The notes beneath the pieces are model-generated. The model was not told the origin of the DNA, did no database searches, and was given only the letters and a program-made list of their open reading frames with translations. From Roseibium sp. (GTDB lineage: Bacteria > Pseudomonadota > Alphaproteobacteria > Rhizobiales > Stappiaceae), in contig NZ_OZ245929.1 in the NCBI RefSeq assembly GCF_965229775.1, positions 5,094,430 to 5,158,429 on the forward strand: 64,000 bases of DNA, in the 5' to 3' direction. This document shows, in pieces, positions 14,177-24,631 of this stretch. Made by a program: the position numbers and the translations under genes. How positions within the stretch are numbered: position 1 is the stretch's first letter; the number at the start of each line of letters is the position of its first letter.

Positions 14177-15154
14177 TCAGGCCGGTTCGCTTCGCATGAG
14201 GCGGGCTTCGGACGCCACGCTGCCCTTGGCTGCAAGGCAAACTTGCTCGATATGCCTGTGGTCCGTTCCGCAGCATCCACCAAGGACAACGAGCTGCGGC
14301 ATGAACGTCTTGAGTTCGGCGTAGTCACGTCCAGTCTCGACCGGGTTGCCGTCATCGAGTTCTTCCGCCTCGTCGAGTTCCGCATGGCTGAGGCGTGAAG
14401 CGTTGGCGCGTATTCCGCAGATCCGGTTTCGCCAGTCGCCGCCGGCACGCAACGTCTCAAAGAAATGATCCGGATGGGCACAGTTCAGCATGAAATAGGC
14501 CGGTCCGTAGTCGGTTCGTGCATCCACTTCTTCGATGGCTGCACCAAGGGATTGGCCGGTCGGCAGGCGCCCGTCGGTTTCAACCGTGAACGAGATCACG
14601 ACAGGCATGCCATGACCCTGCGCTGCCCGGACGATCCCGATCGCTTCCGGTGTGTTATTGATCGTGATAGCCGTTACGAGATCAGCACTCGTCAGGGCAA
14701 ACGCACCGATCTGGACAGCGTGATAGGCTTCCGCTTCCTCCGGACTCATGATTTCGCCCGGAACGTAGCCGTCTCCGCGCGGCCCGATGCATCCCGACAG
14801 GACGCTGCGCAGCCCTGGAAACTCGTCCTGCAAGTCGGCCATCAGGGAAACGGAACGGCGGTTGAGCGTCGCCAATTCTTCTGGATCAACATCCAGCTTT
14901 TTGGCCCAGTCAGGGCTTGCACGCCATGTCGCGCTCTCAAAGACGAAGCCGGTTCCGTGTGCCGCGGCAACGGATGCATGGCTGCGGTAATACCGGCGCA
15001 GCGCTTCCCTGCCTTCTTCCGTAGCCAGTAGCGGGAATGCGGCAAACAACGGCAAATCGAGACCGTAGTCGAATATCAGCGTTGTCTCGATGCCACCGTC
15101 CGTGACAAAGAGATCACCACTCATCTGCGGCAGGGTGTTTGCAATTTCCTTCAT
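14177..15154 (-). CDS. Homocysteine S-methyltransferase family protein
   Basis: DGGIETTL, GCIGPRGDGY, Zn ligands LNCAHP and GGCCG. Confidence 0.9.
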   Translation of the reverse strand: MKEIANTLPQMSGDLFVTDGGIETTLIFDYGLDLPLFAAFPLLATEEGREALRRYYRSHASVAAAHGTGFVFESATWRASPDWAKKLDVDPEELATLNRRSVSLMADLQDEFPGLRSVLSGCIGPRGDGYVPGEIMSPEEAEAYHAVQIGAFALTSADLVTAITINNTPEAIGIVRAAQGHGMPVVISFTVETDGRLPTGQSLGAAIEEVDARTDYGPAYFMLNCAHPDHFFETLRAGGDWRNRICGIRANASRLSHAELDEAEELDDGNPVETGRDYAELKTFMPQLVVLGGCCGTDHRHIEQVCLAAKGSVASEARLMRSEPA

Positions 15155-15285
15155 GTCGCTTCTCCTGTAGCGTTGACGGGAGAAGGATTGACCGGGCACC
15201 GTTTTGCTACCGTCACAAATGCTGGCCTAGCCGCGCTCGAATCGTTAAATTTTCGCCAAATCGGATTCACGGGCGAGGCTGCTGG

Positions 15286-18200
15286 ATGGATCGCGACAAC
15301 TGTCTTGATATCCGGCTATTGGGACGGCTGGAGATACACTTCAAGGACCGAATGCTGGCGTTTCCGACGCGCCAGGCGGGTTTCCTGATCGGATTGCTTG
15401 CCTTGGAAGGACCTTTGCGCCGGGAAGTCGCCGCCGCCCGGTTATGGGGAGAACGTGACGAGGCTCAGGCACGCGCGTCGCTCCGGCAGACGGTCTATCA
15501 CATCCAGAAGGTATTCGCGTCCGCAGATGCACCGGAACTTGACGTAACGCGGCAAACCATTTCGTTGATGGAGAACTCGTTTCGGACCGACATCGATGTC
15601 CTTCTGGAAAACCTGAACAAGAATCCGACCACTGCCGCCAGGGCTTATCGAGGTGAACTTCTTGGAGACGTGGGCCGCGTGGACCCGGCGTTTCAGGACT
15701 GGCTCGATCAGGAACGGCGTGGGCTGAACATGAGGATCTCGCAAGGCTGTGCTACCGCGGCAGGACGTTGTCTCGCCGGAAACGATTGGGGTGGGCTTGA
15801 CGCAATTTCCTCACTCGGTCTGAAAGTCGACCCCTTCAACGAAGACGCAATTCGACAACGCATGGAGGCCCTGGCGCATACGAACCGGAGGGCTTCTGCG
15901 CTTGCGGTTTTCGAAGAATTCAAGGAAGCACTGAACTCAGCGCTCAACATCGAACCGGAGCAGGCGACACAACAGCTTCGCGAAAAGATAGCCAACCGGG
16001 CTGCAGAAAATTCCCCTGTGCCCGATCCGTCTCCGTCGCCGGAAAGCGATATCGGGTTCCGCGAACGACGAAGCGTCTCGCTGCTCGCGGTCACGCCGTC
16101 GGAGATCGTTCCGGATCCGGAGAACTTTGCTGCAGATTTCGCACGCGTGAGCGCGGTTCTCGAAGAGGTCCTTCAGGATGGCTCGGCACAGATCCTCGAA
16201 CAGTCAGGCCCCGCTGTCGTGTGCGTATTCGGCGCTTCGGGCCTGGTTGAACGCCATGCGGAAGCAGCTGCGCACACAGCCAGTGCGTTGGGGGACCGTA
16301 ACGGCACGTCATTGAAAATAGCCGTCGTCTCCGGAGATATCGTCGATACGGTCACCGACGGTGCAGCCGGTCTTGACGTCACCGTTCTGGCGCCGCTTCT
16401 GTCGCAGGCGAATGTCCTGTTACAGAAAGCTGTACCGGGTCAAAGCGCTCTCTCGCCAGCAACCGTGGCCCGACTGAATGCGCGCGCCATCCATCGGTCC
16501 TTCATCGCACGCAAGGCGGAACTGGACGAATTGCAATCCGCCTTCCTCCAGGCACGCCTTGGGCAGGCGCAGGTCGTTGGAATTGTGGGCGAGGCCGGCA
16601 TCGGAAAATCGACCCTCCTGCGGCGGTTTCTGAGTTCCTGCAAGGATACCCATGTCCTTGTGATTGAGGGGTACGACCGAGAAGCCTCAAGATCGTTCGG
16701 CGCCATCGCAAGGTTCCTCGCAAAATGGGTCTCCGGTGGCGAAGATCCAAGCCGCGCTTCGGTCGACGCGGCCATCGGCGCGCAGCGGATCCGTGCCGTT
16801 CACCGGGAAGTCCTTTTGGTCCTGCTGGGTCTTGCAAACGTAGCCGAGCGGGACAATCTGGTGCGTGAGGAACAACGCCTGAGGGTCTTCAAGCTTGCGA
16901 GCGAAGTCATTCTCGCGGCATGTGAAAAAGGCGAAACCGTACTCGCCGTAGAGGACGTGCATTGGCTTGACCGGGATTCGGCAGAATTCCTGGACCGTCT
17001 GATCGGAGAGGTTACGGGAAGTTCCTTGACGGTTCTCACAACGTTTCGTCCGGAATTTCAGGTCAGCTGGATCGGACGAAGTTCGTTCCGGCTGTTACGT
17101 CTTGCACCGCTTGCGGACACGGACGCCGCGGAGCTGATTTCTCCCTGGATGGCGGGATTGTCGTCCAGCGCGCGTGACGAAGTGCTGAAACGTGCGGCGG
17201 GTAACCCGTTCCTGCTTGTCGAAACCGCGCGGGCCGTTGCCGCCAGCAGCGAAGATACACTCAATGTCGTGCCCGCAACGATCCGCGATGTCCTGAACGC
17301 CACAGTCCATCGTCTGGCGTCCGACGAGCGCCGTGTGCTCCAATGCGCCGCGGTCCTGGGCTTCGAAGCACCCGACAATGCCATAGCTGCACTCACGGGT
17401 TTCGCGGAAATGCGTCTTGACGACGCCCTGGCAAGGCTCCGGCAGGAGGAACTGCTTGTTCGCAGCGGTATCGACGCTTCCTCGCGACACCGTTTTCGGC
17501 ACGCACTGCTTCACGAAGCGGTCTACGCCACGATCCCCCGGGAAGATTCAAGGACGTTGCATTCAAGAGCCTGCATCCATCTTCAGGGGCGTGATGACAT
17601 CGATCCGGCGGCCATTGCACACCACGCCTGGTGCGCGCAGGCTTGGCCGGCCGCGGTTGAATGGTACCGCCAGGCCGGCGACCGCTTTGCGATGCTGTCT
17701 TCCTATGCTCTTGCGACCGAGGCCTATGGTCACGCAATTGAAGCTCTCGATAAATGTCAGGAACAGCAGAGCTTAAGCGAGAAGCGTCTTGACCTCGCTC
17801 TCAGGCGGCGGCCGGTGCTCGTGCCGCTGGGTCTTTATGAGACCGCACGGGAGGAACTTGACGAGGCAGAGGCTCTTGCCGACCGGATTGACAGTCGCGC
17901 TTACCGCATCGCAGTCCACATCAGCAAGAGCTACCTCTACAGTACCCACGGGTATCTGCAGGACGCGATTGTCCATGCCAGACGCGCGAGCGCCGCATGT
18001 CAGCCGGAGGAACAGACCGCGTACGAGGCGAAGCTGGCGGAGGGTCAGGCCTTGTCGCTCATGGGAGACTGGCAGGGAACGATCGCACTCCTGGCCCCGA
18101 CTGTTTCCTACTGGGAGAAGCACCGGCACGAAAGGTTCGGGCATACCGGAACACGATCAGTCTGGTGCCACGGACATCTTTCCAATGCATTTGGTCTCAA

Positions 18201-18750
18201 CGGCCAGATCGAGGCAGCCCGCAGGCACGCCGAACGTGCGTTCGACCTTGCAGGAGAAACCAGGAGACCGCTCGACACGGTTTTCTCGCTCCACCTGCTT
18301 GGCAGGGTGCAGCTCTTTGCGGGCAATCCGGAAGAAGCGCTGTCGCTATTGCTGGAAGCCTTGCGTCGTGCTGAGGAAATTGACGCGCCGATCTTCCGGT
18401 CCTGGTTCGCCTGCGATGCCTTTCCATTGCTTCTGGCCGCCGGGCGGACCGACGAAGCAGGCAATTTGCTGAACCGCCAGATCGACGTGGCGAAACAACT
18501 CAAACTGCGCCAGTTCCACGGTTGGCTGCGGCTGAACAAGTCCGAAATGCTTCGAACCAGCAGGCGTTTCACCGAAGCAGAAGCTGAGGCAAAAGCCGCC
18601 CTCGCCAGTGCAAGAGACACAGGCGATCTGGTTCTTGAACCCACTGCTCTGAAGATCCTGGCGCAGTATGAAGACGAAAGCGAGCGTAGGAGTGCGACCG
18701 AGGCTGCAATGGATCTCGCAGCACAGCGCGGTCTTGCCATTTTGCGCTGA
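15286..18750 (+). CDS. SARP/BTAD + degenerate cyclase-like + STAND AAA ATPase + TPR regulator (1154 aa)
   Basis: IRLLGRLEI winged helix, ARASLRQTVY, DPFNEDA BTAD, Walker A GEAGIGKS, Walker B LAVEDVHW, HRFRHALLHE, helical TPR-like C-terminus. Confidence 0.85.
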   Translation: MDRDNCLDIRLLGRLEIHFKDRMLAFPTRQAGFLIGLLALEGPLRREVAAARLWGERDEAQARASLRQTVYHIQKVFASADAPELDVTRQTISLMENSFRTDIDVLLENLNKNPTTAARAYRGELLGDVGRVDPAFQDWLDQERRGLNMRISQGCATAAGRCLAGNDWGGLDAISSLGLKVDPFNEDAIRQRMEALAHTNRRASALAVFEEFKEALNSALNIEPEQATQQLREKIANRAAENSPVPDPSPSPESDIGFRERRSVSLLAVTPSEIVPDPENFAADFARVSAVLEEVLQDGSAQILEQSGPAVVCVFGASGLVERHAEAAAHTASALGDRNGTSLKIAVVSGDIVDTVTDGAAGLDVTVLAPLLSQANVLLQKAVPGQSALSPATVARLNARAIHRSFIARKAELDELQSAFLQARLGQAQVVGIVGEAGIGKSTLLRRFLSSCKDTHVLVIEGYDREASRSFGAIARFLAKWVSGGEDPSRASVDAAIGAQRIRAVHREVLLVLLGLANVAERDNLVREEQRLRVFKLASEVILAACEKGETVLAVEDVHWLDRDSAEFLDRLIGEVTGSSLTVLTTFRPEFQVSWIGRSSFRLLRLAPLADTDAAELISPWMAGLSSSARDEVLKRAAGNPFLLVETARAVAASSEDTLNVVPATIRDVLNATVHRLASDERRVLQCAAVLGFEAPDNAIAALTGFAEMRLDDALARLRQEELLVRSGIDASSRHRFRHALLHEAVYATIPREDSRTLHSRACIHLQGRDDIDPAAIAHHAWCAQAWPAAVEWYRQAGDRFAMLSSYALATEAYGHAIEALDKCQEQQSLSEKRLDLALRRRPVLVPLGLYETAREELDEAEALADRIDSRAYRIAVHISKSYLYSTHGYLQDAIVHARRASAACQPEEQTAYEAKLAEGQALSLMGDWQGTIALLAPTVSYWEKHRHERFGHTGTRSVWCHGHLSNAFGLNGQIEAARRHAERAFDLAGETRRPLDTVFSLHLLGRVQLFAGNPEEALSLLLEALRRAEEIDAPIFRSWFACDAFPLLLAAGRTDEAGNLLNRQIDVAKQLKLRQFHGWLRLNKSEMLRTSRRFTEAEAEAKAALASARDTGDLVLEPTALKILAQYEDESERRSATEAAMDLAAQRGLAILR

Positions 18751-18764
18751 CTGAAAATTCCGGA

Positions 18765-19070
18765 CTATAGATACACCACAGCCGGCAGCAGCAAGATTTC
18801 AGATCCTGTTCGGAACATTCCATCGCCCGATTTGCGTACCGGGTTTGAGCTTCGGGACTCTCCGGCGGCCTGTGCAAAGAAATCGCTGTCCGTCCTGAGC
18901 ACCGTTCTGGCCATGAAGTCACGCCGATTGGTCCGCAGGCTTCGATTCCGATAGTTCAGTCGCTGTTGCCGGGCAATCGTTCCTTCTTCGTCCAACCCCA
19001 CCAGACGGGAAAAGCCGACCATGTCCATGGCAACGATCGCGGCCAGGCGTCTTTCCAGGGGGTGCTCCAT
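18765..19070 (-). pseudogene. Truncated class III adenylate/guanylate cyclase gene remnant
   Basis: The first ~35 aa (ERRLAAIVAMDMVGFSRLVGLDEEGTIARQ) match the N-terminus of alphaproteobacterial cyclase-TPR proteins; the remainder has no cyclase motifs. Confidence 0.7.
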
Positions 19071-19396: not shown

Positions 19397-21169
19397 TCAG
19401 TCGATCTCAATGATGATGCCCGTATGGACCACGTGGGCGTCTGCCCAACGGTTATACGGGATCGGGGGTTCATTGAAGAACGCGGCCATCACCGCCTGAC
19501 CCTCGCCACTGTTGTTTGGCTGGCTCGGGAACCACGGTATCCAGTCGGCGGGTTCGCCGGTCACCCAGCCCCAACCGCCATCGGGTTCGCGCGCGCCGTC
19601 CGTTTGCTGCAAACCGAAGGTCGGACCGACATAGGAATTGTCGCCATGGTCCCGCCAGAATCTCTTGTCGTCCTTGACCAGACGAAAAACGAAGTCGTTT
19701 TCTTCAGGCGTCGTGAGCGTCGCCAGATGTCCGCCGCTGCGCTTGGCGAGCGCATTCGCTCCGTCGACCCTCGCACAGCACCATGTCAGAACACCGATAA
19801 ACAGACGGTCTTCGAAAAAGCCATACACAAATTCCTTGCCTGTAAGCGCTGTTGCCGCTTTCAGAAGCCGCGGGTCCGTCTCGAGAAGGGCAAGCGTTTT
19901 CGGGTCATAACGGCGTGCATTGCTGGAGGATACGATCGGGACTGAACTGGTTTCAGCCGCAATCAGTTCGATGTTCAGTGCCTCTGCCGTTCCCGCAGTC
20001 ACCACGCCGGTCGACGGCAGCCCGGCCGCCGCCTGGAAATCCGCAATCGCCCGGCGCGTCCGCGTCCCGATCACGCTATCCTCAGGACCCGCGTCGTAGC
20101 CGCGCGCATTCAGTGCCGCCTGCACCGCCTGGGCGTCTTCCTTCGACAACCCGAGCGACTGCTCGGCCGAAGCCGCCGCCTCGCGCGCAACCGTGATCTG
20201 CCCACTTTCAGCAACGACGCTTCCCGGTGCGCCCGCCAGCGCTGCTGCCGTCAGTTCCTCGCGCGCGGTCAGCGCCAGATCGCGCATCGAACCTGCCGGG
20301 AACCGCTTCAGGTAGATGTCCCAGGCCCGCTCGGTGTTGATCGCCAGCGCCGCCTCGAAGATCGCCTCCTCCTGCGCTGCGGCGATGGCCGCGCCCTCAC
20401 CTCCTGCGGCAAGGTTCAGGTACACCTCAAGTGCCAGGTCGTTCGTCACAATCGGTACCTGCTTGTCCTCGGTATCGGCTTTCACGTCGCGGATAACGCG
20501 CTTCATCAGCGTCAGAATCTCGACATTCTCGGTCGGCAGGTGCTTCGCCAGAGCCGCCGTGAACGGCGAGTTCCCCGAAGCCCCGTCATAGGCGACCTGC
20601 CCGGGCGAGGCCGCGAACATCAGCATCGATCCCTGAAAGCGCCCTGCCATCGGTGCGAGGCCCCGCGTCGCAAGCGCACGCGTCGGCGAGAAATTCTGGG
20701 TATAGAACTCGGTGGCAAGCGGATTGTCCCGGCAGGCGTCGATGAAAACCAGAGCGGCGCGCGCTCTTTCTTCAAGCATCTGCACGATCCGGTTGAGCGG
20801 CAGCGCCTCGCTCTGCACGTCGAAGGCACTTCGCAACGCGGCGTCCACCCCCAACAGGTAATTCTGTCCCTCGAACTGCATACCGTGGCCGGCGTAGTAA
20901 AAGAGCGTTACGTCCGCGCCCTCGGTCCGGTCGAGGAAAGCCGAAAATTCGGATGCCAGCCCTGCCCGCGTCAGATCGGTCGCCAGCGTGACTTCGAAGT
21001 CCAGTCCTTGGAGCGTTTCAGCCACAAGGCGCGCATCGTTGACCGGATTGGCAAGCGGCCCCGCGTTGGCGTAGTCCGCGTTGCCGACAATGAACGCCGT
21101 GCGTTTCGCCGCAAGGGATGGAAGCGCGCTCAGCACCAACACAAAGGCGAAAACAAGAAATCGAAACAT
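19397..21169 (-). CDS. Secreted caspase-family (C14) peptidase with peptidoglycan-binding and C-type lectin domains
   Basis: Signal peptide; catalytic YAGHG and DACR; VQAALNARGYDAG...IADFQ PG-binding; GGHLATLTTPEEN...WGWVTGE...QPNN...RWAD lectin. Confidence 0.88.
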   Translation of the reverse strand: MFRFLVFAFVLVLSALPSLAAKRTAFIVGNADYANAGPLANPVNDARLVAETLQGLDFEVTLATDLTRAGLASEFSAFLDRTEGADVTLFYYAGHGMQFEGQNYLLGVDAALRSAFDVQSEALPLNRIVQMLEERARAALVFIDACRDNPLATEFYTQNFSPTRALATRGLAPMAGRFQGSMLMFAASPGQVAYDGASGNSPFTAALAKHLPTENVEILTLMKRVIRDVKADTEDKQVPIVTNDLALEVYLNLAAGGEGAAIAAAQEEAIFEAALAINTERAWDIYLKRFPAGSMRDLALTAREELTAAALAGAPGSVVAESGQITVAREAAASAEQSLGLSKEDAQAVQAALNARGYDAGPEDSVIGTRTRRAIADFQAAAGLPSTGVVTAGTAEALNIELIAAETSSVPIVSSSNARRYDPKTLALLETDPRLLKAATALTGKEFVYGFFEDRLFIGVLTWCCARVDGANALAKRSGGHLATLTTPEENDFVFRLVKDDKRFWRDHGDNSYVGPTFGLQQTDGAREPDGGWGWVTGEPADWIPWFPSQPNNSGEGQAVMAAFFNEPPIPYNRWADAHVVHTGIIIEID

Positions 21170-21506
21170 TGGCACCCTGCCGGCAATTTATCTGTTCAGA
21201 ACAATTCACCTGACATGCATACCTAACCCAACGGCAAGCGACAAGCTTCAGCCCGTCACCCGCTGGCGGGTCTTGCAAGAACAATCGGAACCGCAGCACG
21301 CCAACGGTGTGCAGAACCGCCCATACTTTACGCAAAGGAAATACTGGTAACTTGCCAGCTTGATGTAGTAGAGTCTTAACAAGCGCTCGTTGAACAGCGC
21401 ACCGTGCTTTACCTTGCAAACATGATTTTAGAAGTTCTGCGGCCATGAAGGCCGCGCTGTCGAGTCGTCAGTCCATTTGGCTGTAAATTGTTCCGAAGGG
21501 GGCAAG

Positions 21507-22853
21507 ATGGTATTCGATATTCAAGCCGCGCTGAAACGTATTGCAAGCGTATTCGGCCAAACAAATGATCAAGCCCCTGCCCCGACCGGTGATGATGGCC
21601 TCTTGCCGGGCCAGATTGCCGACGCGCTACAGCCGCAACCCTACCCCAGCGTGACGGAGTGGCCGGATGATGTCCTTGCAACGATCCGCTATCGCCAGTC
21701 CACGAGCTATCGCGAAGTATCGCGGGCGCTCGGGATCAAGGGCGGCGCGGCCGCCGCGTTCGAGCATCTGCGGGAAACGCCGCGGCCGGGCCTGACACCG
21801 GAGCAGTTTCGCGACTACATGGGCTGGCAATCGCTCTTTTCCGACGAAGAGCTTGAAGCAGCCAAACAGACAATTGCCGAGGCCGATGCAGAAGAGCCCG
21901 AATTGCCGCAATTCGACCTGGAAGACGGCCTGGTCCGGCAGCGCTGGTTCCGGATCCAGACCGTGCTGGAAGAACAGGCGTTGCGTCATGTCGGCCAGCC
22001 GCTGCATATGTTGCCGTATATCGCCACCCTTCCGGAGGGCGACATCAACGCACGCGTCGTCCCGACCATGGATGGCGACAACTACGTCATTTTCTATGAC
22101 CACGGCATGATGCGTTATCTCCGTGACTTCGCCGCGCTGGTGTGCTGGGTGGCACCGCCGATCGATCCCACGGCCCTGTTGGATGACCGGGCGATCGCGC
22201 AACTGCCCCGCTCCCATACCTTGCCGCCGGGCACGATCGACGTGTGCCTCAACACCCTGCGACGCTACATTTACGAAGGAACCCCTGAAGCGGACGCTCC
22301 CTACGTGTCCCCACCGGAATGGAACAGGCATCTGTTTGTGCCTGTTTTCCAGAACATGCTGAGCTTTGTCGTGGCTCACGAGCAAGGACACGTGCGCCTC
22401 GGACACTTTGCGACCGACCGTTTCGGCCCGGTCCCCGAAGGAGAGGCCGATGGCAACGCGGCCTTCCTGATTTCCTATCAATCCTTGCTTGGCGGCCAGT
22501 CATGGTCGGTTCCCTTCTGGTGTGCCGACCTGGCACTCATCGCCTTCCGCATGCTGGATCATACCTTGTGCGTGCTGGAACACGGGAAGACCGGTCTGCC
22601 CTGGAAAGACGAGATATACCCCGCGCCGGAAGAGCGCCGAAATAGCCTCAGGAACTACGTACCCGGGGATATCCCGGAGATATCGAGATTGGCGACCGGC
22701 AACCTCATCGGCATGAACAACTCGCTTTTTGCCATGGTCGAGGACCAGGTCACCCTGTTCTTAGTCAGTGACTACACCAAGGGGCTGCGGCCATCTCCGC
22801 TGTGGAACGGCCGCGTCCGCCGAACATGGGGCCGCGCGCCGCAAACGCCATAG
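21507..22853 (+). CDS. Cytoplasmic HEXXH zinc metalloprotease-like protein (M48/U49-like)
   Basis: INARVVP, HEQGHVRLGH (22377-22406), downstream EGEAD, C-terminal YPAPEER; no signal peptide. Confidence 0.7.
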   Translation: MVFDIQAALKRIASVFGQTNDQAPAPTGDDGLLPGQIADALQPQPYPSVTEWPDDVLATIRYRQSTSYREVSRALGIKGGAAAAFEHLRETPRPGLTPEQFRDYMGWQSLFSDEELEAAKQTIAEADAEEPELPQFDLEDGLVRQRWFRIQTVLEEQALRHVGQPLHMLPYIATLPEGDINARVVPTMDGDNYVIFYDHGMMRYLRDFAALVCWVAPPIDPTALLDDRAIAQLPRSHTLPPGTIDVCLNTLRRYIYEGTPEADAPYVSPPEWNRHLFVPVFQNMLSFVVAHEQGHVRLGHFATDRFGPVPEGEADGNAAFLISYQSLLGGQSWSVPFWCADLALIAFRMLDHTLCVLEHGKTGLPWKDEIYPAPEERRNSLRNYVPGDIPEISRLATGNLIGMNNSLFAMVEDQVTLFLVSDYTKGLRPSPLWNGRVRRTWGRAPQTP

Positions 22854-22896
22854 CAACGAAAAACGTATGTCATTCGATCAGGAGGATGGAAGCAAC

Positions 22897-23292
22897 ATGG
22901 ATACGATGACGACCGTTGAAATCGACGTGGAATTCACGCCCGATTCGCCGGAGGAACAGGCGAGTATCGAGAGCGCCGTCAGAGAGGCGGCGGAAGGCGA
23001 CAGCTTCAAGACCGGCAAGGGACTTGGCGCCAGCGGATTCGAACTGACGATCCTGGCAATCCTCGGCGTCCGGGCTCTCGTCGACCTCGTCATGCTCATT
23101 CGCCGGGAATGGCGCACGGGCGTCGTTATCGATTTCGAGGGCGAGAAAGTACGTGTCACGAAAGATCCGGACCTGCCCAAGGGCGAGGTCATCATTTTCC
23201 ACAAGGATGGAACCAAGGTCACGCGAAAACAAAACGAGATTGACGGTTTAGGCGATCTGATCACCGCCGCCGCCAAAGTGTTTTCCAAATAG
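22897..23292 (+). CDS. Small protein with one hydrophobic helix and a beta-rich C-terminus
   Basis: GGAGGA RBS; 43 bp after the protease stop; ELTILAILGVRALVDLVMLI helix. Confidence 0.75.
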   Translation: MDTMTTVEIDVEFTPDSPEEQASIESAVREAAEGDSFKTGKGLGASGFELTILAILGVRALVDLVMLIRREWRTGVVIDFEGEKVRVTKDPDLPKGEVIIFHKDGTKVTRKQNEIDGLGDLITAAAKVFSK

Positions 23293-23326: not shown

Positions 23327-24631
23327 TTAACCGAAACGCTGCTCCATCTCGCGGCGGATCCTCACGGCATCGGCGGTCTCGTCAATGTCGACGTCGTCCC
23401 AGGTCACGATCTGTCCGGCGGCAATGCCGTTCTTCAATGTCACGCCGTGGGCAAGGCCGATCGGCAGCGCGCCCCGCGCAAGCGAGGTTCTTGCCGGCAA
23501 CAGCTTGCCCCAGACCGTCGATCCGCCTTCCCCGTCCAGTCTCTCACCGATGGCAAGGTCGCGTTTGGCCGTCGCGGCAACATCGGCGTCGAAGGACAGC
23601 GTCGAGCCGGTCGGCTTGCCGAGCAATGCAGCGGACAGGATGGAAACGTTCAGCTCGAGCCCGATCAGGTGAAAGGGCTTGTACATCGCCGAGTAGCGTC
23701 CGGAGGCGTCCGTGTTCATGCCGTATTGCCGGAAACAGGCGGCGGCGTAAGGGTTCGGTGCTTCGATGACGACATAGACGCCCCAGCGAAGATCCCGGAA
23801 TACCGGCCGGCCATCCCGCTCCAGGGAAGACACGACTTCCACCATGCCTTTTCCGGCCAGCTGACCGCCATCTTCAACGGGGCGCAGAACATGCGCCAGA
23901 TCATCCATTCCGGCAGGCGGGAACAGCAGGCCGTCCGGCGGCGGCGTCAGACCCGTTGCATTGGCAATCGCAGCCATTTCGAGCGCGGATTTGGTGCCGT
24001 CGAGGAAACTGTTGAACATCTGCGCGTTCATGCCGGCGGCCGCTGCCTGCTCTGGCGTCAAGCCATAATGATCCCAGACCGTATCCGGCGTGGACGCATG
24101 GTAGCTGGGCAGGTATTTTGTGCCCTTGCCGGCCGCGACGACGCTGAACCCGCAGGACCGGGCCCACTCCACCATCTCACAGGTCAGCGCCGGCTGGTCA
24201 CCATAGGCCATCGAGTAGACCACGCCCGCCGCGCGCGCCTCTTCCGCCAGGAGCGCGCCGGCCAGCACATCGGCTTCAACATTGACCATGACAACGTGCC
24301 GGCCCTGCCGGATTGCCTCCCGGGCATGAACAAGACCCGCGACAGGGTTGCCGGTCGCTTCGACAACAACATCCACATCGTCACGCGTCATCATGGCCAT
24401 GGCGTCGTCGGTGAAGGCCACGCCGCCGGCCAGATCCTCCGTCCAGCCGACTTCGGCGCACGCCTTGCGGGCATTGTCGGGACGCAGATCCGCAATTGCC
24501 GACACCGTCAACCCTGGCGTGGTCGGAACCTGGCTCAGGAACATCGACCCGAACTTGCCCGCACCGATCAGACCCACCCGCACCGGCCGTTGCGCTGCCA
24601 CGCGTGCCGACAGCTCCTGATAAACGAACAT
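23327..24631 (-). CDS. NAD(P)-dependent oxidoreductase with C-terminal SAF domain (homoserine dehydrogenase-like)
   Basis: IGAGKFG Rossmann motif, VVEATG, AYGDQPAL, SAF AKRDLAIGERLDGEGG. Confidence 0.85.
   Translation of the reverse strand: MFVYQELSARVAAQRPVRVGLIGAGKFGSMFLSQVPTTPGLTVSAIADLRPDNARKACAEVGWTEDLAGGVAFTDDAMAMMTRDDVDVVVEATGNPVAGLVHAREAIRQGRHVVMVNVEADVLAGALLAEEARAAGVVYSMAYGDQPALTCEMVEWARSCGFSVVAAGKGTKYLPSYHASTPDTVWDHYGLTPEQAAAAGMNAQMFNSFLDGTKSALEMAAIANATGLTPPPDGLLFPPAGMDDLAHVLRPVEDGGQLAGKGMVEVVSSLERDGRPVFRDLRWGVYVVIEAPNPYAAACFRQYGMNTDASGRYSAMYKPFHLIGLELNVSILSAALLGKPTGSTLSFDADVAATAKRDLAIGERLDGEGGSTVWGKLLPARTSLARGALPIGLAHGVTLKNGIAAGQIVTWDDVDIDETADAVRIRREMEQRFG

Follow-up and report, generated by a model that had tools for sequence, protein, structure and literature searches.

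The window analysed here, a 64,000-nucleotide stretch of the Roseibium sp. contig NZ_OZ245929.1 (assembly GCF_965229775.1, positions 5,094,430 to 5,158,429), carries on its forward strand two neighbouring genes, one for a predicted HExxH metalloprotease of 448 aa (21507-22853) and one for a small protein of 131 aa (22897-23292), here called the partner. Comparison of loci from three phyla and several metagenomes establishes that the two form an obligate, co-diverging and co-localised pair with invariant catalytic residues. They belong to two undescribed protein families, neither of which has a Pfam or NCBIfam model. Here it is proposed, tentatively and at somewhat less than an even chance, that the pair would be a metalloprotease version of a protease-licensed membrane-effector module, in which the partner would be a dedicated client released by cleavage onto the membrane, by analogy with the EACC1-caspase system.

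The protease gene is preceded by a ribosome-binding site (GAAGGGGG, 21495..21502, +), read from the sequence, with its ATG at 21507 being 4 nt further on, and its product has neither a signal peptide nor a hydrophobic N-terminus. The segment VAHEQGHVRLGH contains H291, E292 and H295 of the HExxH zinc-binding and catalytic motif (HEQGH, residues 291-295, 22377..22391, +), which is invariant in an alignment of 60 family sequences and aligns with the HExxH of BepA and with the Lit, CapP and M48 models. It is followed by EGEAD (residues 311-315, 22437..22451, +), an ExxAD motif that aligns to NEQEAD of BepA and whose E311 is, from what is known of the M48 family, presumably the third zinc ligand. 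A third motif, YPAPEERR (residues 371-378, 22617..22640, +), corresponds to the family motif (T)HPxPxxRR and aligns weakly to THPLPESR of BepA (second domain). The positions invariant in the 60 sequences are Q64, H291, E292, H295, E311, A314, D315 and R377; P372 is almost invariant, and R378 is invariant among the 11 closest sequences. To judge from its sequence, the protein is an M48-like gluzincin whose catalytic set is intact. An extension at residues 1-50 is confined to the subclade of Roseibium and locus L001, and the nearest homologues, with 95% and 87% identity, come from Roseibium sp. The first-pass annotation of this stretch had reported the HEXXH, EGEAD and YPAPEER motifs, the lack of an export signal and a second protein of 131 aa, and both open reading frames (ORFs) are as it described them.

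The partner gene lies on the same strand as the protease gene, after a gap of 43 nt, with an AGGAGG ribosome-binding site (22880-22885, +), also read from the sequence, 11 nt before its ATG at 22897. The partner ORF includes GLGASGFELTILAILGVRALVDLVMLIRREWRTGVVIDFEGEKVRV. Initiation at an earlier GTG (22768), which would give 174 aa, is unlikely because the homologues all begin about 6-8 residues before the first strand. The AF2 model, of low confidence, and the family alignment agree on the order of elements, which runs strand, helix, long hydrophobic helix (residues 46-70), four strands, C-terminal helix; the N-terminal strand and helix are acidic. The hydrophobic helix as placed by the model (residues ~46-70, SGFELTILAILGVRALVDLVMLIRR, 23032..23106, +) has a mean Kyte-Doolittle value over 19 residues of 2.38, and 82 of the 84 aligned family members pass the transmembrane criterion of at least 1.6 on this measure. 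On the Hessa scale, the helix is marginal (sum of ~+2 kcal/mol) and polar residues in its middle are frequent. Family members have helices rich in Gly, Ala and Ser, such as IVLVGTLLANALANL; the window partner has a single Gly (ILAILGVRAL) plus R59 and D63. The net charge of the partner is about -6 on the N-side of the helix and about +2 on its C-side. The most conserved part, covering residues 72-113 in the columns of the 84-sequence alignment (23110..23235, +), contains the four predicted strands, with G75, D79 and G96 invariant, W72, R81, K89, L93, P94 and G105 nearly so, and a family consensus of LWKCGVVVDARG...KNCDLPRGxVLV...DGT. A search with a profile of five partners collected 87 proteins of 81-177 aa, none with a Pfam domain.

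That the two ORFs are genes and not chance frames follows from the persistence of homologues of both in other phyla, at identities down to 25-45%. With hidden Markov models (HMMs) of both families applied to every fetched locus, protease and partner adjoin in 13 of the 13 loci that have enough flank, namely the window, L001, L002, L003, L005, L006, L008, L009, L011, L012, L013, L014 and L023. Not counted were L004, from the same Roseibium metagenome-assembled genome (MAG) region as L002, and L010, a second assembly of the Nostoc sp. ATCC 53789 locus L009; L007 stops just past the protease and L022 starts at the partner, so that both are uninformative. Besides the window and L002-L004, which are from Roseibium, and the Nostoc locus, the set includes a Solirubrobacteraceae MAG (L005) and metagenome contigs (L001, L008, L012, L013, L014 and L023). 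One further record, for which only gene calls are available, has a partner without an adjacent protease gene call. The protease stop and the partner start overlap by 4 nt in L001 and L005, and the pair is presumably co-transcribed. Pairwise identities of the proteases and of the partners are strongly correlated across ten pairs (r = 0.89, Mantel p = 2e-4). The two-gene unit of the first-pass annotation is thus borne out, since the genes stand together wherever a locus is informative, in three phyla and several metagenomes.

The two proteins also share their targeting. A Tat-type N-terminus is present in 4 of 107 proteases and 6 of 86 partners (~5% of each family); in L006, L011 and L023 both proteins have Tat-type signals, and in L023 both share the unusual form TRHxFLK. 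Neither protein has a Tat signal in the window, L001, L002, L003, L005, L008, L009 or L012. Because the signals are concordant across loci, both proteins are taken to act in the same compartment, which for the Roseibium pair is predicted to be the cytoplasm. Some divergent or damaged copies were also observed. The protease is split over two reading frames next to an intact partner in L013 (5088-5961), which adjoins two IS110 transposases and a YoeB/YefM pair, and in L012 (2027-3248), near DDE transposases; these copies may represent decay or assembly errors. Two more distant relatives of 385-390 aa with HExxH...EFEAD...HPxPxxR occur without a partner, one in another Roseibium (genome G466, L026:1045-2214) and one on a 38-kb IMG/VR viral contig (L047:4719-5873; PADLOC peptidase_U41, 1.4e-9). 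The wider protease clade may have other partners or none.

In two of the loci with Tat signals, a third gene lies between the partner and the convergent protease (L006:5119-6204, minus strand; L011:6490-7677, plus strand). It encodes a protein with an N-terminal TIR domain (TIR_2, E = 4.8e-24), which weakly matches the Thoeris and SAVED-TIR models, and a multi-pass membrane C-terminus without a family match; the two copies are 50% identical. A SLATT-like identity of these third genes was considered and is not supported. The TIR-membrane gene is the sole direct link to known immune components and is limited to one lineage, where this three-gene variant may link a cytoplasmic TIR domain with the protease and partner in the periplasm.

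The protease could not be placed in a known peptidase family. No Pfam or NCBIfam model matched the protease or the partner at E<=1, and a profile search of 1.84 billion cluster representatives gave 214 protease relatives at E<=1e-3, 47 of them at E<=1e-30, mostly of 370-460 aa. Peptidase_M48 (PF01435, cut-off 20.3 bits) is weakly matched by 38 of 60 family members at E<=0.1 (best 6.1e-9), with no match of the window protease at E<=1. Peptidase_M78 (PF06114) is weakly matched by 29 of the 60; the window protease has no match to it, and the protein P0004 has one of E = 0.12. Among PADLOC models, peptidase_U41 is matched by 43 members, Lit by 33 (best 1.2e-8) and CapP by 19, with RmrA also matched; for the window protease itself, the PADLOC matches are weak and restricted to the catalytic segment (peptidase_U41, 4.6e-4; Lit, 0.053 over 43 residues). 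The NCBIfam Lit model PRK09672 matches the L005 protease over ~90 residues with E = 3.3e-6, at 26.5 bits against a cut-off of 274. The best match with a solved structure is BepA (E = 1.6e-5), in which HExxH, E.EAD and, weakly, THPxPxSR are aligned, and the profile search of PDB sequences matched the catalytic segment only; a PHROGs search gave nothing meaningful. No family member reached the curated cut-offs of M48, U49 or M78. The protease is therefore equidistant from M48, U49 and M78, distantly related to them through the catalytic segment and a member of none by curated thresholds. The earlier label of M48/Lit-like protease is valid at the superfamily level, for the gluzincins with HExxH...ExxA[DN], M48, Lit/U49 and M78 among them, but not at the level of a family, since no curated cut-off is reached.

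With the M48 enzymes (BepA, HtpX, Ste24; PF01435), the protease shares the order of the motifs HExxH, ExxAD and (S/T)HP...R and an 'NA ... GL' segment that precedes the catalytic helix. It differs in the spacing from HExxH to the Glu ligand (~16-25 residues here, ~60-80 in BepA), in an insert of ~70 residues between the 'GL' segment and HExxH, and in an unrelated helical N-terminal domain of ~150 aa; we also know of no obligate small partner of an M48 enzyme. With Lit/U49 (Escherichia coli e14; PF10463, PRK09672, PADLOC Lit), it shares a soluble HExxH protein of a few hundred residues, a sporadic occurrence and recurrent model matches over the catalytic region, whereas the scores are far under the family cut-offs and the two have nothing in common outside the catalytic segment. 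Lit, moreover, acts alone on EF-Tu, and this protease is always with its partner and sometimes periplasmic. The M78 peptidases of ImmA/IrrE type (CapP of CBASS, RmrA) share the order HExxH ... ExxA(N/D) with short spacing, but these matches are limited to ~40 residues and the pair has no adjacent genes for a helix-turn-helix (HTH) repressor, CBASS or retron; no HTH, CBASS or retron neighbours were found in any locus examined.

EACC1, to which the partner had been likened, is part of a two-gene membrane-associated conflict system with a caspase and has a single conserved transmembrane-like helix, extended on its N- and C-terminal sides by short alpha+beta segments (Kaur et al. 2020, PMC7159879). 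Its cleavage by the caspase sets free a C-terminal fragment that forms pores (Evans et al. 2025, bioRxiv 10.1101/2025.11.14.688446). The partner has this architecture, with one hydrophobic helix (a low-confidence model, and the Kyte-Doolittle values given above for 82 of 84 members) and short alpha/beta extensions. The two systems have in common a two-gene module of a protease and a small non-enzymatic protein (~115-130 aa), in which the small protein is the constant component, always with one type of protease, as well as a sporadic distribution. They differ in the protease, which is a zinc metalloprotease here and a caspase there, and in the Tat export of some members here. The helix of EACC1 further has a patch of small residues, often Gly, in its middle; the family members of the partner have the helices rich in Gly, Ala and Ser described above, and the window partner has its single Gly.

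The resemblance to EACC1 does not extend to sequence. The EACC1 model PF19953, present in the library, was matched by 0 of 84 partner family members at E<=10, and the other conflict-partner models in Pfam were likewise matched by 0 of 84 at E<=10. With hhalign, the partner family against five bona fide actinobacterial EACC1 sequences gave a probability of 5% (P = 0.008), and none of 200 column-shuffled controls scored as high; after removal of the helix, the N-N and C-C comparisons scored no higher than the mismatched N-C control. Because HMM matches are absent and the hhalign signal vanishes without the helix, the resemblance is architectural, an evolutionary relation is not demonstrable, and homology of the partner with EACC1 was rejected. 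The EACC1-type partner of the first-pass annotation hence holds for the one-helix alpha/beta build and not for descent. Its other suggestion, a Pepco/Trypco-type partner, did not hold up, as no such family is among the 25 listed of the 39 Pfam families weakly matched by the 84 partners, the presence of these models in the library being unconfirmed; Pepco is also described as forming a beta-barrel without a hydrophobic helix, and the protease associated here is a metalloprotease. A profile search of PDB sequences with the partner found nothing, and Foldseek with the partner model against PDB returned noise only (TM ~0.2).

As proposed here, the pair would be a self-contained, horizontally spread two-gene module of a cytoplasmic zinc metalloprotease and an obligate small partner. 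The protease would remain idle until a trigger acted on it, perhaps via its helical N-terminal region (~200 aa), and would then cut the partner; the likeliest site is the conserved QxGxxG(I/F)E loop immediately N-terminal of the helix. The cut would remove the acidic N-terminal piece, and the freed helix and C-terminal beta part would insert into or assemble on the inner membrane, halting growth. The logic would be as in EACC1-caspase, with a metalloprotease and with a partner that is either unrelated or diverged past recognition; this Roseibium would have the cytoplasmic two-gene version, and a minority subclade a Tat-exported version with the TIR-membrane protein. The proposal is favoured because of the co-occurrence in 13 of 13 loci, the co-divergence, the co-targeting, the invariant catalytic residues and the EACC1-like architecture, and also because of the EACC1-caspase precedent, the accessory character of the pair and the TIR-membrane gene in two loci. 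A broader claim, that the pair is a conflict module across several phyla, a metalloprotease counterpart of EACC1-caspase of independent origin with both cytoplasmic and Tat-exported, TIR-wired forms, is possible but rather unlikely.

Several points weigh against the proposed module. The analogy with EACC1 is one of architecture. The partner gene is 3' of the protease gene here and 5' in EACC1-caspase, and no sensor domain (e.g., STAND) or effector domain is recognisable on the protease. The AF2 models, each built from a four-sequence alignment, are both of such low confidence as to be unusable as structures (pLDDT 37.8 for the protease and 52.7 for the partner). No defence island, for which the first-pass annotation had proposed a neighbourhood analysis, is recognisable around the pair in the window or in the other contexts. 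Given its Tat-exported versions, the family is not bound to the cytoplasm, the expected site of phage sensing. In addition, the positive-inside rule predicts an N-out/C-in partner, so that different domains would face cytoplasmic and periplasmic proteases; this difficulty may be avoided if the helix is not inserted in the membrane before activation.

The explanation that competes most directly takes the partner as a membrane anchor, an adaptor or a cognate inhibitor of a protease with other substrates, in quality control or regulated membrane proteolysis; the partner would tether the protease or hold it in check within the compartment that they share. A subunit or an inhibitor would be just as likely to show obligate adjacency, co-divergence and concordant Tat targeting. 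Other M48 enzymes (BepA, HtpX) act in quality control or regulated proteolysis, operon-encoded inhibitors are known for other bacterial proteases, and the closest solved relative, BepA, is itself a periplasmic quality-control protease. The genomic contexts are housekeeping-like and not defence islands, and the C-terminal domain of the partner is conserved far beyond what would be expected for a mere cleavage substrate. A housekeeping protease, however, would not usually be so rare and patchy, one subclade has an inserted TIR-membrane gene, and the helix, with polar residues in its middle and a Hessa sum of ~+2 kcal/mol, is marginal as a stable anchor. An anchor, adaptor or inhibitor is accordingly a serious possibility, although on balance a doubtful one. 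Abortive infection of the Lit type, which had been raised for this protease by analogy, would have a phage product activate the protease and an essential host factor cut, with the partner as an accessory. Lit cuts EF-Tu in E. coli phage exclusion, and the recurrence of the PADLOC and PRK09672 Lit matches over the catalytic region, together with the more distant relative on a viral contig, speaks for this explanation. The same matches fall far short of the Lit cut-off, are confined to the catalytic segment and are equalled by those to M48 and M78/CapP; Lit is not known to have such a partner, and the window locus is in neither a prophage nor a defence island. The ~5% of members with Tat signals would be out of reach of EF-Tu, which makes Lit action on EF-Tu a poor fit as the general function, and this explanation is improbable.

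A toxin-antitoxin-like pair that stabilises mobile DNA, in which the small protein neutralises the protease or the protease the small protein, would account for a small, translationally coupled and patchy two-gene cassette with some copies next to insertion sequences and a YoeB/YefM pair. Nevertheless, the small gene comes downstream of the other and encodes no DNA-binding domain, toxin-antitoxin families are unmatched, and the Tat export of both proteins does not fit the cytoplasmic logic of such systems, so this reading is given little probability. The gene upstream of the pair suggests a last alternative, in which a caspase would be the true protease partner of the small protein, as in the EACC1-caspase type, and the HExxH gene would be incidental. 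The gene in question (19397-21175, minus strand) is divergently transcribed 330 nt upstream of the protease gene and encodes a secreted caspase (Peptidase_C14, E = 1e-37) with a signal peptide, PG_binding_1 and a weak C-type-lectin-like domain. It matches the NCBIfam model 'caspase, EACC1-associated type' with 50.6 bits, but this is far under the cut-off of 140 bits, and its signal peptide and its peptidoglycan-binding and lectin-like domains also speak against such a role. The caspase adjoins the pair within Roseibium only, is separated from it in L002 by a DHH phosphoesterase gene, and is missing from every non-Roseibium locus, where the HExxH gene is always there. It was therefore rejected as a member of the module, and the alternative built on it is hardly credible.

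To our knowledge, pairs of a protease and a small effector have recently become a dominant logic of bacterial immunity, and those characterised so far rely on serine or cysteine proteases. Should the partner be a membrane effector released by the protease, a metalloprotease class and a periplasmic variant would join that logic, and if the conflict-module reading is true, protease-gated cell suicide would operate on the periplasmic side of the membrane as well. If the partner is instead an anchor or inhibitor, the pair would represent a new regulated M48-like protease system. In either case, it is compact (1.8 kb), and in some lineages both proteins are able to move together to the periplasm.

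The pair is rare, patchy and horizontally distributed. True orthologues were found in 2 of the 37 genomes sampled from the genus and in 1 of 301 cyanobacterial genomes, and its range spans Alphaproteobacteria, Cyanobacteria, Actinomycetota and several metagenomes. Scans for the locus with degenerate patterns, which are narrow, gave two hits in genome contigs, three in metagenome contigs and a distant one in viral contigs. In the Roseibium species of genomes G470 and G459, the pair is missing and the DRL oxidoreductase gene that follows it in the window is present, with 89% identity. Synteny with both genomes begins exactly at 23328, where the DRL oxidoreductase gene has its 3' end and the partner gene has just finished, and continues to ~26245 with ~80% DNA identity. 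The DNA to the left of 23328 is a variable spot, occupied in G470 by genes for an IlvD/Edd-like dehydratase and a secreted DHH phosphoesterase, and the pair is accessory DNA in this variable region. No repeats flanking the pair, no promoter-like site, no terminator-like site after the partner gene and no Rfam families were found.

Other features of the surroundings were observed in the window and in the related Roseibium loci. In L003, the caspase and the pair are preceded at ~4 kb by a Tn7-like set (Mu-transposase_C/rve, TniB and TniQ; L003:816-5960), which underlines the proneness of the region to insertion. Both L002 (18249-19370) and L003 (16553-17674) encode, ~6.5-8 kb downstream of the pair, a 373-aa protein that matches several baeRF (bacterial eRF1-like) families. 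Beyond the caspase gene, the window contains a 101-aa ORF without a Pfam match (18765-19070, minus strand) and an ORF for a protein with BTAD, AAA_16 (STAND-like) and TPR matches (15139-18750, plus strand), which would be 1203 aa long with the TTG at 15139 as its start. The position of the latter is taken in L002 by the gene for a 577-aa protein with Guanylate_cyc, TolB_N and TPR matches, and the ORF at 15139-18750 may be a remnant of the corresponding gene.

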